A stretch of 64,000 nucleotides of DNA from an uncultured cyanobacterium (GCA_963744145.1 CAVUSO010000001.1:3104001-3168000), one strand, 5' to 3'; numbered from the stretch's first letter, positions 32,115 through 37,653 are shown. Made by a program: numbers and translations. Notes: generated by a model not told the origin, from the sequence alone.

Positions 32115-32315
32115 ATGGTGCATATTCGCTTTGAAGGACATTCCTACGATTTGACAGAAGCGGAACTAGGAATTACAGTCAACATGAACGAAACTACCAT
32201 TAAAGAAAGTCTCGCTCAACATCTTGATGTGAATCGCGATCGCTTATCAAAATACGTTTTGGATCGACGTCCTAGTGGTGATTTAATTATCCGTCCTGAA
32301 GCAGTTTATGGGTAA
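32115..32315 (+). CDS. 66-aa putative ubiquitin-like (beta-grasp) protein ending in Gly
   Basis: GGAGG RBS; [13 protein letters not shown]...[10 protein letters not shown]; ThiF gene in the same operon. Confidence 0.65.
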
Positions 32316-32368
32316 TATAATTATCCTCTATACCCAGAGATAAAGCTTACAGATATTGACCAGATTTT

Positions 32369-32499
32369 TCACTTCGCGCCCTGACAAAAAAAGCTTACAT
32401 ACTAGCCGAATTGGTACAGGCACTTGAATTCTAAATCAAGCGATTGCAGGTTCAAATCCTGCGTATAAGCAAACAGCTTTTTTAACTTGCGTGAAGTGA
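32369..32499 (+). ncRNA. tRNA-like cloverleaf (32393-32471) enclosed by an 11-bp outer stem; candidate Y-like RNA
   Basis: D arm GCC-GAATTGGTACA-GGC; anticodon arm CTTGA-ATTCTAAA-TCAAG; T arm GCAGG-TTCAAAT-CCTGC; bulged acceptor stem; outer TCACTTCGCGC/GCGTGAAGTGA, then T8. Confidence 0.8.
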
Positions 32500-32526
32500 T
32501 TTTTTTTGGGGTAAAGTGTCAATAAT

Positions 32527-32615
32527 GGCAGTTAAGTCGCACCCTCATCGGTAAAGCTAATCTAGCTTGATCACCAACTTGTGCGGAGATCTATCATTTG
32601 TGTGCGAAAACTGCC
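32527..32615 (+). ncRNA. Second end-paired structured RNA upstream of the Ro-like gene
   Basis: GGCAGTT/AACTGCC and TCGCAC/GTGCGA terminal stems; internal AAGCTA-atc-TAGCTT hairpin. Confidence 0.55.
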
Positions 32616-32652
32616 TCCTGAAAACTCCACAATCAAGGGGAGGTAGTCAAAA

Positions 32653-34086
32653 ATGAATATACTTGAACGCGATTTACGGATCGAAATGCTCAATAGTCTG
32701 TTGACTACACCACATCGAGAATTAGGTAAAGTCACAGAAATTCATAAATTGATCATCGAACTTGATCCGCTGTTCTATGGACATTTAGCAGTTTGGTATC
32801 AGCGTCATGGTGATGTACGGGATCATCAAGAAGTATTTTTAGCACATTTACTAACCAGTTCTCTATCTGAACATCGTGATGCTGGGTTTATGATGCTACA
32901 AGAATTGCCACCTTATCAGGTAGCTCGCATTGTAGACTTGATGAAACAGCAACGTCAAAAATTTCCCCGTTCTGCTCGCACTGCGGTGATCCGCTATCTC
33001 AAAACTCGGGAAAAAAATCCAGAGTTTTTCGATCGCGCTGCACTCCGGGGACGGAAAGCAATGAAGCATCTTTATGCGAGTTTGCATATTAAACCAAATG
33101 AGCGTGCTGATGCAATCCTATTTAAGGATAATCCTCCGGAAAATAGTCTTGCTTATGTAGTCAAGCAACTGGTAAAAGCTCCAACTCCCCAGCAACAAGC
33201 AGAAATAATTGTTGCTCATAATATCCCTTATCCCATTGCGATCGGTACAATTAAGCTATTGACACCAGTAGTCTTAGTAGCATTAATTAATTCCATGTCA
33301 CCCCAGGAGGTAATTAATAATCTCAAATCCTTAAAAGAACGGGGAGCAATGGATCATCCCGAAGTCAAAAAACTGATCGATAGCAAATTAGAACTAGCAG
33401 CAAAAAGCGATCGGGTATCTGCGTATAAAGCTCAAGTTGCTGGAAATCAAGTTCAATTAGATCCAGAAACCACAGCGAAGTTAGAACAGGTAACTAACGA
33501 ACAAGTCAAGAAACGAGGAACAATTAGAAAAGCTACTGCTTTATTGATCGACAAATCTGGTTCAATGGAACAAGCGATCGAAGTTGGTAAACATCTGGCT
33601 GCATTAATTTCGGGGATCACGATCGCTGAACTATTTGTCTATGCTTTTGATACAATGCCTTATGTAGTGCAAGCTAATGGTAAGGAAGTGAGTGATTGGG
33701 AAAAAGCTTTCCAACATATCAAAGCAGATGGAGGGACAAGTTGTGGTTGTACCTTAGAAATAATGCGACGGAAAAAGCAGTTGGTGGAACAGATTATCTT
33801 AGTCACAGATGAAGGTGAAAATACTCAACCTTATTTTGCGGAAGCTTATCATACCTATTCCCATGATTTGACCACCATAGCTGATGTGATCATTGTCAAA
33901 GTTGGGTCAATCACTAATTGGTTGGAAAATCAACTTAAGCAAAAACAAATCCCTTATGAAACTTTCACCTTTACCGGAGACTACTACTCGCTCCCCAATC
34001 TAGTTCCTTTAATCACTCGTCCTTCTCGACTAGACTTGTTAATGGAAATTATGGCTCTACCATTACCTGTACGAGATGATAAATAG
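32653..34086 (+). CDS. Ro60/TROVE-like helical protein with C-terminal vWA domain
   Basis: TROVE-like [14 protein letters not shown]...[30 protein letters not shown]. Confidence 0.78.
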
Positions 34087-34090
34087 ATGT

Positions 34091-34767: not shown

Positions 34768-35974
34768 ATGGGTTCAGGATCTTTTTGGAACGATGATTCT
34801 ACCGGACAAAATAATGTCCAAAGTCGAGGTTTACTCGCATCAGGTTGGAGACCATTATCACGACAGATTGATTTATCATTCCTGTTGCATTTAGCTACTA
34901 ACGATACCTGGGAATTAACACAAAAAACTCTAGATTTAGCGAGTGATATTGCAGATGCGATCGGACGTTCGAGATTATACTTGGTGGGCTAACATTTTAA
35001 ATATATTTTCCGAAAATACTCGCTATGAAATAGATGAATTTTGGAATTATATTACTCCCGAACCACCTGCACCTGATGAACAATTTAAAGATGTTTTAAG
35101 TATTGAAACTCCTACTGTGCAAATCGTTAGTCGTGATAGTATTCCGATTGATTATGTTTTGAATCGTCTCCGGGAAATTATTGTCATGAAAGTTCTAGAT
35201 TTATTAGGACGTCCAGAATTAATTACCCAAGACTATCTAGAACGACATTTCTATTATCCCGTCGAACGATTTCTCAATTGGGAAAGAATGGAAGCGATCG
35301 GTACAGTTTACGCTTATTGGTCACAGCATCAAGTTTGGTTGCAAATTAATAGTTCTGGAAGAGGAAGAAGACGTTATACTCTCATCGCTAAGGATATTGC
35401 ACCTTTAGTGAATAAATCAACCTATAATCTAGCAGTCATGTTGAGTGGTTATCAAAGTCGGGTTGGTCAGGTGCAAAGTCAGTTTCCGATTCGGACTTTT
35501 CCTAAAGATATTCAAAATTTTACTGATATTGTTCAACAAGCTATTATTGATCAAAATCAGTTAGCTGTGTTAGTACATGGAGATCCAGGAACAGGAAAAA
35601 CTGCATGGACTCAAGCAGTAGCAAAAGAAATTTTGATGCCCTTAGGATATGTTATTTTTATCTTAGATCATGATGCGGTCGAAAATTTTGTCCCCCAAAA
35701 TTATTTGCAACGGGTTTGTCTGATTATTAATGAAGCAGATAATTTAGCTCAAGATCGATCTACTGAAGTTGCTCAACGTAGTAGTAAAACTGAACATATT
35801 TTGAGTTTGCTAGATGGAACTTTATATCAGAGTGTAGTTGATGAAAATGGGTTACAATCAGAGCAAAGATTAGTAGTATTGATGACTTGTAATACTACAG
35901 AAAGGTTAGATCCAGCAGTTTTACGCAAGGGACGGGTTGATTTGATGTATGAATTTACCGAAAAGTTTATCTAG
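34768..35974 (+). pseudogene. AAA+ ATPase split by a +1 frameshift near 34970
   Basis: ORF 34768-34992 joins ORF 34943-35974 if one base is removed; GDPGTGKT, IINEAD, TCNTTERLDPAVLRKGRVD. Confidence 0.75.
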
Positions 35975-35995
35975 TTAAGATTGTAGGTAAGCATT

Positions 35996-36832
35996 ATGCT
36001 TAAGATTGAGCAGTTACTTCACCAAATTGCTACCCAAGAAAAAGAATTTTGTGCTACCCAATTTCTAGCTCCATCAGTGGTCGGAGGAAAGGTGCGATCG
36101 CGAGTATCAGGTCTGATCTATACTTTTACAATTAAACCCCAGCAATTTACTGGTTGGGGAATATTTCAACCTCTGAATTCTACCGTAGCTGAGTTGGTTA
36201 CTGAAGCAGATTTACCCCAGATTGCTGAATATATGCAATATATGTCACCCATGCGTTTTTGGTTAGCTTATGCTTTACAAAAAAACACTTGGCTCGCATA
36301 TCCAATTAATGAATCTGATGCTCAACAACGTTTTGGTATTACTAAACCAGTTCCGATCCATTTAGTCAGTAATGGTGCAGTTTTTGAACAAATTATTGCC
36401 CGATGGGATGGAGGTAATTGGTGGTTTGAAGATTATGATCGTCGAGCTGATCCTTTTTTATCAGAAAACCTGACAACCGCTTTAAAAGAAATTACTCTAC
36501 CAGCTAAACTTCGGTTTAAAGGAATGACACCAGAAATGAAAATAGTTTATCAGTTGGTAACCCAGCAACAAGCAGAATTTAAAGCCAAAATGGAGTTACA
36601 AACTGATGCAGAAAAACTTGCTCAAGCATTAAAATTAGGTGGAGGAGAATTACAAAAATTTCGCGATCGCGATGATTACTGGGTCGTAGAGTGGACTACT
36701 GGATATGGAGAACATCATACCAGTGCGATCGCTAAAAGTGACCTAACTGTAATCAGTGCAGGAATTTGTCTAAGTGGACTAGATCGAGATTTTGATTTAT
36801 CATCTTTAGTGGGTGTCGTGGAATCTCGATAG
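35996..36832 (+). CDS. Hypothetical protein with C-terminal SAGICLSGxDxDFDL motif (possible E2-like)
   Basis: Co-oriented in the operon; Cys in a GICL context. Confidence 0.7.
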   Translation: MLKIEQLLHQIATQEKEFCATQFLAPSVVGGKVRSRVSGLIYTFTIKPQQFTGWGIFQPLNSTVAELVTEADLPQIAEYMQYMSPMRFWLAYALQKNTWLAYPINESDAQQRFGITKPVPIHLVSNGAVFEQIIARWDGGNWWFEDYDRRADPFLSENLTTALKEITLPAKLRFKGMTPEMKIVYQLVTQQQAEFKAKMELQTDAEKLAQALKLGGGELQKFRDRDDYWVVEWTTGYGEHHTSAIAKSDLTVISAGICLSGLDRDFDLSSLVGVVESR

Positions 36833-36834
36833 CT

Positions 36835-36988
36835 GGTGATCATCCAATACGGTTCAGTTAAGGATATTTTGGGAGATCTGGTGAGAAGAAGGGTGAAGCA
36901 TTCGGATATAATATTATTCGTTTAAGTGATAAATTATCGCCCGAATGCTTCACCCCTACAGTTAACTTAACTATATTGGGTGATCATC
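36835..36988. mobile_element. MITE/REP-like element inserted in the operon
   Basis: Imperfect terminal inverted repeats GGTGATCATCCAATA.../...TATTGGGTGATCATC; internal GGGTGAAGCATTCG/CGAATGCTTCACCC is a compensatory variant of the 16.4 kb repeat. Confidence 0.75.
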
Positions 36989-37017
36989 TGGTTTTGTTCC
37001 CTCAATAATTAAAGTAA

Positions 37018-37653
37018 ATGTCTATATTCTTCCATGAACAACTCTATCGAACTCAACCAGTCATGGTGCAATTAACAAATTTTGCTGTGACTGTTTGTGG
37101 TGCTGGTGCGATCGGAGCTAACCTGACCGAAAGTTTAGCTCGATCGGGTTTAGCAAAATTAAAAGTAATTGATCGCGATCGCATTGAAGAACGTAATTTG
37201 TCAACTCAACCTTATTATCGAGCTGATGTTGGTGCTTGCAAAGCCAAAATATTAGCTCATCATCTTTATCGTGCTTTAGGAGTAAAAATTGAGGGTCAAT
37301 CTCAAGAATTAACTCCTAAAAATGTCAAAGAATTATTAAAAAATAGTGACTTAGTTATTGATTCCTTTGATAATAGTATCGGACGTCAAATAGTTAAAGA
37401 TTATTGTTTAGCAGCAAATCTTCCTTGTTTGCACATCGGATTAGCTAGTGACTATGGGGAAATTATCTGGAACAATTCTTATCGCGTTCCTTCTGGAGCT
37501 AATGATGATATTTGTGATTATCCATTAGCGAGAAATTTAGTCATGCTTACCGTTGCGATCGCAGCTGAAGTAATTATTAAGTTTATTGCTACTGGTAAAC
37601 AAGAGAGTTTTACTATTACCTTAGCAGATTTTGGGATTCAACAGTTTCATTAA
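37018..37653 (+). CDS. ThiF/MoeB/E1-family adenylyltransferase
   Basis: GAGAIG, DRDRIEERNLSTQ, IDSFDN, DDICDY; no CxxC zinc pairs. Confidence 0.9.
   Translation: MSIFFHEQLYRTQPVMVQLTNFAVTVCGAGAIGANLTESLARSGLAKLKVIDRDRIEERNLSTQPYYRADVGACKAKILAHHLYRALGVKIEGQSQELTPKNVKELLKNSDLVIDSFDNSIGRQIVKDYCLAANLPCLHIGLASDYGEIIWNNSYRVPSGANDDICDYPLARNLVMLTVAIAAEVIIKFIATGKQESFTITLADFGIQQFH

Follow-up and report, generated by a model that had tools for sequence, protein, structure and literature searches.

A cyanobacterial cassette of a ubiquitin-like protein, a minimal E1-like enzyme, a cysteine-bearing OB protein and a putative Ro60-like protein with tRNA-like RNAs

Can a bacterial ubiquitin-like protein (Ubl) be activated and passed on by two partner proteins alone, or does it belong to a larger assembly? 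The question is raised by a stretch of 64,000 nt from an uncultured cyanobacterium (GCA_963744145.1 CAVUSO010000001.1:3104001-3168000), here called the window. A cluster at 32115..37653 of this stretch encodes a 66-aa protein that ends in Gly, a ThiF-type protein and a 278-aa protein with a conserved Cys, and an earlier note on this DNA had proposed that they may form a minimal Ubl-E1-E2 trio. As a self-contained unit the trio does not hold, as a Ro60-like protein of 477 aa and Y-type RNAs co-occur with the trio as tightly as the trio's own parts do with each other. The reading favoured here is that the Ubl is activated and transferred in a pathway with ties to a Ro/Y-RNA particle, and we regard it as evenly poised between right and wrong.

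Linkage of the core genes

The cluster, one copy of a conserved cassette, has six genes, all on the + strand between 32.1 and 37.7 kb, and four of them (the Ubl, Ro-like, 278-aa and E1 genes) form the core of the cassette. Their distribution was followed in 61 related genomes, with a threshold of E <= 1e-50 for the E1 ortholog. The 477-aa protein and the E1 ortholog are found in the identical 24 genomes. The 278-aa protein is also present in 24, of which 23 are shared; it is missing from one fragmented carrier and is found in addition in one genome that is 75% complete. The Ubl occurs in 23 genomes, each of which is a carrier, and 36 of the 61 genomes have none of the four genes. The trio without the Ro-like gene was never encountered in this sample. 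In each of three families (G050/G015, G052/G017 and G019/G053) one sampled genome has all four genes and the other has zero; because presence is all-or-none in these pairs, the four core genes are gained or lost together. That they share one phyletic pattern is confirmed, and the feature is beyond chance, with no statistical claim made on the co-occurrence because the genomes are kin.

In 20 loci that surround 278-aa homologs, the E1 gene is adjacent in 13, a KptA gene is nearby in nine, an AAA gene in six and the 477-aa gene in six. The E1 gene is not adjacent to the 278-aa gene in the other seven loci, and where the two lie apart in the genome both are still kept. The Ubl gene sits elsewhere in the genomes of these loci, always close to the 477-aa gene. 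A phylum-wide sample places the 278-aa family in 32 of 301 genomes, 31 of them of the window's order and one of another order in the class. Judged by the source names of homologs, the cassette is widespread in filamentous cyanobacteria.

More distant cassettes add a further component. A search of genome contigs with the single 278-aa sequence gave no related loci; a distant member of the family (P0086) led to two contigs of metagenome-assembled genomes (MAGs). The one from Melainabacteria (L084) has the order Ubl (ending in AVFG), 278-aa homolog, Prok-JAB and E1, with a Ro-like gene 3 kb downstream, and the second contig is without JAB. A 595-kb uncultured phage (L116) carries, on one strand, a Y-like RNA, the Ubl gene, a second Y-like RNA (77.1 bits with the covariance model R1 described below), a Ro-like gene, a 278-aa homolog, Prok-JAB and E1, with tRNA arrays adjoining. 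The two JAB proteins score 37.1 bits (Melainabacteria) and 32.6 bits (phage) against the Prok-JAB cut-off of 25. The Dolichospermum flos-aquae plasmid pAfl69 (L117) shows the arrangement RNA-Ubl-RNA-Ro-like, followed further along by 278-aa-E1. This plasmid is 68.9 kb in length and is typed as non-mobilizable; a HEPN-domain gene separates its Ro-like gene from its 278-aa gene, and E1 is followed by an IS1634 transposase gene.

The window cluster itself has no JAB gene, and the JAB protein of the Melainabacteria locus has no relative in the window's genome (E 0.68). The earlier note had remarked on the absence, adding that no peptidase is needed where the Gly is already terminal. The absence is real here, although JAB does belong to the cassette in the Melainabacteria MAG and in the phage. 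A JAB gene beside a Ubl that needs no trimming argues for the removal of conjugates. The earlier preference for conjugation over cofactor sulfur transfer gains from this, as JAB lies between the 278-aa and E1 genes in two cassettes and favours conjugation and deconjugation; conjugation to protein or RNA is still conjectural.

The Ubl, its E1 and the OB-OB-Cys protein

The Ubl gene lies at 32115..32315 (+ strand). The open reading frame (ORF) can be read from 32100 or 32115 to 32315, and the starts of homologs agree with the ATG at 32115, which gives a protein of 66 aa. There are 519 protein matches at E <= 0.001, and nearly all among the 120 matches listed have exactly 66 residues. The ending AVYG, to which attention had been drawn before, is borne out: the stop follows directly in each of 12 related loci, the seven C-terminal residues (R-P-E-A-V-Y-G) do not vary among 38 aligned homologs, where the mean column identity is 82%, and in two distant loci the tail is AVFG plus stop. 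The protein has no match in Pfam, NCBIfam or PADLOC. Its AlphaFold model, with a predicted local distance difference test (pLDDT) value of 90.3, has the strand-strand-helix-strand-strand order of a beta-grasp and a floppy tail. Foldseek, which had been suggested as a check on the fold, gives no significant E-value, yet its top rows are Ub-like domains, and the structural matches are of the MoaD/ubiquitin type. The model and the tail mark the 66-aa protein as a beta-grasp Ubl with a free C-terminal Gly.

The ThiF-type protein is encoded at 37018..37653 (+ strand), has 211 aa and scores 95 bits with the Pfam ThiF Rossmann domain (PF00899; cut-off 28.1). All that had been said of it earlier, namely that it keeps its ATP-binding motifs and a Cys in DDICDY and is without zinc CxxC pairs, is confirmed. 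In 16 orthologs, two of which are only 44-45% identical, R11, GAGAxG (GAGAIG in the window copy), D52, D54, R55, K75, D115-F-D-N and C166 are invariant. C166 lies after the adenylation core, in the context NDDxCDYPLARN in 16/16 orthologs, and is presumably the counterpart of the crossover-loop Cys of ThiF. The number of CxxC pairs in the protein is zero. The best NCBIfam score is 86.5 bits with PRK08644.1, as against a cut-off of 159, and all ThiF/MoeB equivalog cut-offs are missed. A PDB profile search gives 63 bits with a bacterial ThiF-type protein (9egb) and with yeast Uba1, 55 bits with Uba6 and 54 bits with SAE2, but only 43-44 bits with MoeB and ThiF. The match to the PADLOC E1-E2 models is confined to this protein. 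It is predicted to be a minimal E1-like adenylating enzyme with an invariant Cys, and the Ubl/E1 pair is solid.

The gene in the E2 position, next to that of the E1, is at 35996..36832 (+ strand), and its 278-aa product is a candidate Ubl carrier. The family is large: a threshold of E <= 0.001 yields 733 representative clusters, of which 166 are retained at E <= 1e-30. The protein has no match in Pfam (E <= 0.1), NCBIfam or PADLOC, and as far as its sequence tells it founds a new, unclassified protein family. The AlphaFold 2 model (pLDDT 95.6) has a helix at residues 4-19, two barrels (strands 23-70 and 84-147), helices at 153-214, strands at 218-254, the loop with Cys258 and a helix at 268-277. 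The two OB-like barrels dominate the model, and the fold searches give OB-type matches and show resemblance to S1/CSD/RNase II and to exosome cap proteins. The best conserved part, however, is not the barrels, it is the C-terminal segment SAGICLSGxDxxFDLxSLVGV. Only P26, G139, G256, C258 and L259 are invariant in 64 diverse members. Cys258 is thus kept in 64/64 diverse homologs, and also in 21/21 close ones. The Cys in SAGICLSG had been singled out in the earlier note, which regarded conservation of the Cys as a point on which the proposal could fail; Cys258 and the Cys166 of the E1 are both invariant.

The note had also likened this region to the GxICL active site of E2 enzymes, and here the likeness does not extend beyond the short motif. 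There is no Pfam match to UQ_con or Prok-E2 (A-E) for the 64 full-length members (E <= 0.01) or for 21 isolated C-terminal domains (E <= 10), and an E2 is missing from the listed Foldseek and VIA-align rows of the whole 278-aa model, where a UBC fold may have gone unseen. The isolated C-terminal domain gives noise only against PDB and Pfam, and residues 190-278 give no usable match in the ESM Atlas. Longer fused forms of the Cys domain did not turn up, which is weak evidence. A complex prediction for the E1, the Ubl and the 278-aa protein gave a score of 0.01 against a mark of 0.32 and speaks neither for nor against binding. Cys258 is probably catalytic. Most likely the 278-aa protein takes the Ubl on Cys258 and so would work in an E2-like manner, but it is not filed here as an E2.

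Two unusual family members may be mentioned. P0073, a protein of 331 aa in the representative library, combines a Ro-like fragment (matching approximately residues 137-256 of the window's Ro-like protein) with the Cys domain and second barrel known from the 278-aa proteins; a true gene fusion, a deletion or an artefact of the assembly could each account for it. In P0002 (405 aa) the normal 278-aa architecture is preceded by an N-terminal extension of ~118 residues, in which CxxC pairs recur in the manner of a zinc ribbon.

The Ro60-like protein, the tRNA-like RNA and the neighbouring genes

The 477-aa protein (32653..34086, + strand) appears to consist of a helical TROVE-like N-terminal part and a vWA domain. 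Pfam VWA_2 (17.9 bits, cut-off 27) and VWA_CoxE match it only below their cut-offs. D300-K-S-G-S304, T362 and D386 are invariant in 12/12 Ro-like proteins, and DKSGS with the later Thr and the later Asp presumably represents a metal ion-dependent adhesion site (MIDAS) motif of the DxSxS type. The sole PDB matches are the TROVE-domain entries 9l5y/9kop, found at E 0.087 with the single sequence and at E 0.0011 with a 12-row profile, where the alignment is collinear (24-394 against 61-432). Neighbours of the protein in the ESM Atlas include clusters that carry TROVE and vWA_Ro60. These matches are consistent but weak, and the identity of the protein as a divergent Ro60-like TROVE/vWA protein is a lead.

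The Ubl and Ro-like genes are separated by a gap of 337 nt, in which Rfam finds a tRNA match at 32399-32466 (38.9 bits, model positions 4-67). ARAGORN calls the window RNA a tRNA-??? with a 4-base anticodon. The same RNA element is found between the Ubl and Ro-like genes in related loci, with anticodons that often look ordinary and that vary. An alignment of eight copies shows strongly conserved flanks, and the consensus is built of two 8-bp stems, the first of them terminal, and a full cloverleaf core. This structure comprises 34 pairs, with 95.9% of cells paired and compensatory changes in 11 pairs; 0/500 shuffles reach this, and slid controls are 33-55% paired. The element as a whole is the tRNA-like Y-type non-coding RNA at 32369..32496 (+ strand), in which two long terminal stems enclose a tRNA-shaped core with an 8-nt anticodon loop.

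A covariance model built for the RNA (R1) gives full-length matches of 81.8-143 bits in 22/61 genomes, all of which carry the protein set, whereas no ordinary tRNA or other sequence exceeds 59 bits. Each locus has one to four RNA copies, located between the Ubl and Ro-like genes. The architecture is that of the YrlA RNAs found beside bacterial Ro60, as it combines terminal stems, a tRNA-like core and a Ro-like neighbour.

Ordinary tRNA arrays also adjoin the cassette: ARAGORN makes 17 calls in L042 (G025:C32, 3.2 kb), six in L046 and 17 in the phage locus L116 (20.8 kb). The Ubl/Ro-like cassette tends to sit at tRNA gene clusters.

Two of the six genes are loosely associated and are not part of the core. 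One encodes a KptA/Tpt1 RNA 2'-phosphotransferase (34131..34724, + strand), which scores 271 bits with NF002014 (cut-off 239) and 177.8 bits with PTS_2-RNA. KptA is found in 37/61 genomes; 22 of these belong to the 24 carriers and 15 to the remaining 37 genomes. The other encodes a classical AAA ATPase (34768..35974, + strand; Pfam AAA, 51.1 bits) with a frameshift near 34975, the called ORF being 34943-35974. Its homologs are single ORFs of ~402-412 aa; the first ~70 residues match frame 3 (34768-34977) and the rest frame 1 (34940-35971), and the split gene may be a pseudogene or a sequencing error. AAA is present in 27/61 genomes, of which 18 are among the 24 carriers and nine among the 37 others. 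The nine have zero core genes (G003, G007, G014, G015, G020, G033, G043, G049 and G054). KptA is found as well in seven of these (not in G003 or G033), with AAA within ~7 kb in six and on a different contig in G043. KptA and AAA were considered as core parts and dropped, as their distributions are wider and differ from that of the four core genes. The KptA-AAA pair is a separate unit, and its two genes, which lend the cluster an air of RNA-end processing, are frequent neighbours rather than core components because they also occur paired in genomes without the four.

The genes between the Ro-like and 278-aa genes vary in other loci (L024, L026-L029, L034 and L036) and encode an RNase T-type exonuclease, Nudix, GNAT, DUF6939 and DUF6847 proteins. 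The interval behaves as a variable island with a nucleotide- or RNA-processing flavour. In the window, the Ro-like gene and KptA are 44 nt apart, and this gap holds a perfect 10-bp palindromic hairpin (TTGGGTGAAA TTAA TTTCACCCAA) at 34091-34114, with a terminator-like score on both strands. The called ORFs around the cluster, from 26.5 to 41.4 kb, include a GGDEF protein, a TupA-like ATP-grasp protein, an Hpt protein and a cyclase. None of the ORFs called in this interval is a ThiG/MoaE-type cofactor partner, in agreement with the earlier remark that there are no ThiS/MoaD biosynthetic partners nearby.

Possible pathways and relation to known systems

How might these parts work together? In the favoured reading, the E1 would adenylate Gly66 of the Ubl, possibly passing it via its own Cys166, and the Ubl would be handed to Cys258 of the 278-aa protein, which would have an E2-like role without recognisable membership of the UBC fold. 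The charged Ubl may be delivered to its target by the OB barrels of this protein, or else by the ring of the Ro-like protein together with the Y RNA; possible targets are the Ro/Y-RNA particle as such and an RNA or protein that is bound by the particle. In lineages that carry the JAB gene, the mark would be removed again by Prok-JAB. The OB barrels, together with the obligatory Ro-like and Y-RNA partners, point to an RNA-protein particle as the substrate or the guide of the pathway.

Several points weigh against this reading. The genomes compared are related and so are not independent samples. What is seen directly are folds, invariant residues, gene linkage, co-occurrence and RNA structure, and from these we infer the chemical steps. 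The highest-ranking NCBIfam names for the E1 are those of ThiS-adenylyltransferases, albeit below cut-offs, and in structure the Ubl matches best with MoaD and TtuB, which are sulfur carriers. Where Ubl/E1 pairs are tied to tRNA, thiolation is their classical function. The 278-aa protein has no PDB profile match and no match to an E2 by sequence or fold, and its Cys could serve other chemistry. The Ro60-like protein has no match to Pfam TROVE at E <= 0.1, and its identity leans on weak scores and language-model neighbours. YrlA (RF02553, gathering score 69) has no match at E <= 10 in the window's intergenic region, and in related loci 7/11 give 26.6-39.7 bits, all under the gathering score. 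In the whole of the window's genome, the best Prok-JAB match is 24 bits, below the cut-off of 25.

A serious rival, though we consider it unlikely, is that the Ubl is a sulfur carrier for RNA. The Ubl would be adenylated and, via a persulfide on Cys166 or Cys258, converted to a thiocarboxylate, and the sulfur would pass into tRNA or the tRNA-like RNAs, as in TtuB/TtuC or Urm1/Uba4; the 278-aa protein would then be an OB-fold, RNA-binding sulfur relay. The sulfur-carrier likenesses of the Ubl and E1 just given would fit such a role. However, a rhodanese, PP-loop ATPase, cysteine desulfurase or MoaE/ThiG-type partner is found neither in the window cluster nor among 19 Pfam-scanned cassette ORFs from the two distant loci (phage and Melainabacteria). 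Two cassettes carry Prok-JAB even though the Gly of the Ubl is terminal from the start, and the E1 falls under every ThiF/MoeB equivalog cut-off and scores lower with MoeB and ThiF than with Uba1.

The remaining alternatives turn on the 278-aa protein. That it is a true, highly diverged E2 of the UBC fold, so that Ubl, E1 and E2 make up a self-sufficient minimal conjugation trio, is quite improbable. Its gene does occupy the E2 position beside E1 and JAB, the invariant Cys is in a G-I-C-L context, and the C-terminal order of helix, four strands, Cys loop and helix resembles the E2 core; but the domain has only ~85 residues, the Cys comes four residues after the last strand, the UQ_con and Prok-E2 searches are negative, and no E2 is among the PDB profile matches or listed fold matches. 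Against self-sufficiency speaks the Ro-like gene, which accompanies the trio wherever it occurs in the 61 genomes. It could also be asked whether the 278-aa protein is without a covalent role and serves the Ro/Y-RNA particle as an RNA-binding cofactor or nuclease adaptor, so that the Ubl and E1 act without it, for example by direct transfer of the SAMP/UbaA type. The likeness of the barrels to S1/CSD/RNase II and exosome cap proteins and the seven of 20 loci without an adjacent E1 gene would suit this idea, and archaeal SAMP systems do function without an E2. We hold it to be very unlikely, as conservation is highest at the Cys258 motif and not in the barrels, and the 278-aa and E1 genes are both kept even where they lie apart. 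Finally, a long shot is that the system is one for natural tagging of RNA, the Ubl being not, or not only, a protein modifier. The E1-adenylated Ubl would be carried on Cys258, the OB barrels would dock on the Y RNA or on RNA threaded through the Ro-like ring, and the Gly carboxylate would be joined to the RNA through an aminoacylation-like ester or an amide at the RNA end, to be reversed by JAB where present. If true, this would represent natural ubiquitin-like tagging of RNA.

If the coupling of the Ubl pathway to the Ro/Y-RNA particle is true, it would join two fields that are so far separate in bacteria, ubiquitin-like modification and Ro/Y-RNA surveillance, and it would provide a tractable model for the function of a bacterial Ro particle. 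The cassette also adds a divergent lineage of Ro protein and Y RNA that Pfam TROVE and Rfam YrlA miss at their cut-offs. Within the searchable literature, no report was found in which a Ubl/E1 cassette is connected to a Ro/TROVE protein. Asgard-archaeal 'Nidhogg' viruses are reported to encode Ro60 (TROVE+vWA) as well as three ThiF/E1-like proteins, which the accessible part of the report discusses separately (bioRxiv 10.1101/2021.07.29.454249); these genes may constitute a related cassette in archaeal viruses.

How does the cassette compare with systems already described? The sulfur-carrier pairs ThiS/ThiF, MoaD/MoeB, TtuB/TtuC and Urm1/Uba4 share with it a beta-grasp carrier, whose terminal Gly is activated by an enzyme of the ThiF type that has a Cys in a loop, and there is a link to tRNA biology. 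In contrast to these pairs, the cassette Ubl has a single Gly after Tyr instead of Gly-Gly, there are no nearby partners for sulfur transfer or cofactor synthesis, the E1 is below the family cut-offs, and relatives carry JAB although the Ubl needs no processing. The N-terminal coiled-coil/OB rings of the proteasomal ATPases Mpa/ARC and PAN are another point of comparison; the 278-aa protein scores at a generic OB level and is not fused to an ATPase, and the AAA gene is missing from 6/24 carrier genomes and frameshifted in the window.

Bacterial Ro60 (Rsr) with YrlA-type Y RNAs has been described by Chen et al. (2014; PMC4201824), where a longer 'acceptor stem' in cyanobacterial RNAs is already noted. 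From the available part of that paper, the systems have in common a TROVE/vWA-type gene beside RNAs that join a long stem formed by the ends to a tRNA-like domain, several RNA copies per locus, and presence in phage. They differ in that the cassette protein misses Pfam TROVE and meets solved TROVE proteins only at E 0.0011, and in that its RNAs are below the YrlA gathering score. The partners are also different: a Ubl, an E1 and an OB-Cys protein, as against the RtcB/RtcR repair operon of bacterial Ro60, so far as the accessible text of PMC7790460 sets it out, and the polynucleotide phosphorylase of Deinococcus Ro60.

Prokaryotic operons with Ubl, E1, E2 and JAB genes were described by Iyer et al. 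(2006; PMC1779556), and the CBASS Cap2/Cap3, Bil and Bub pathways later (PMC11601596). To the extent that the accessible portions of these sources describe them, the operons resemble the cassette in having a small beta-grasp protein with a C-terminal Gly, a ThiF-type E1, a Cys protein by the E1, Prok-JAB between them in some lineages, and occurrence on plasmids and in phage. The cassette differs in that the protein in its E2 position has two OB-like barrels and no detectable UBC signature, and in that its E1 is a 211-aa minimal form without zinc pairs, fused neither to an E2 nor to JAB. It is, in addition, bound to a Ro60-like protein and tRNA-like RNAs, unlike the operon types in the accessible portion of PMC1779556. 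Its conservation, with a mean column identity of 82% in the Ubl alignment, is far above what is usual for defence systems.

Taken as a group, the known bacterial ubiquitin-type pathways (CBASS, Bil and Bub) are, to our knowledge, sporadic antiviral modules with recognisable E2s. The cassette is set apart from them by its very strong conservation, by an unclassified OB-Cys protein in the E2 position, and by the inseparable company of a Ro60-like protein and RNAs that mimic tRNA.

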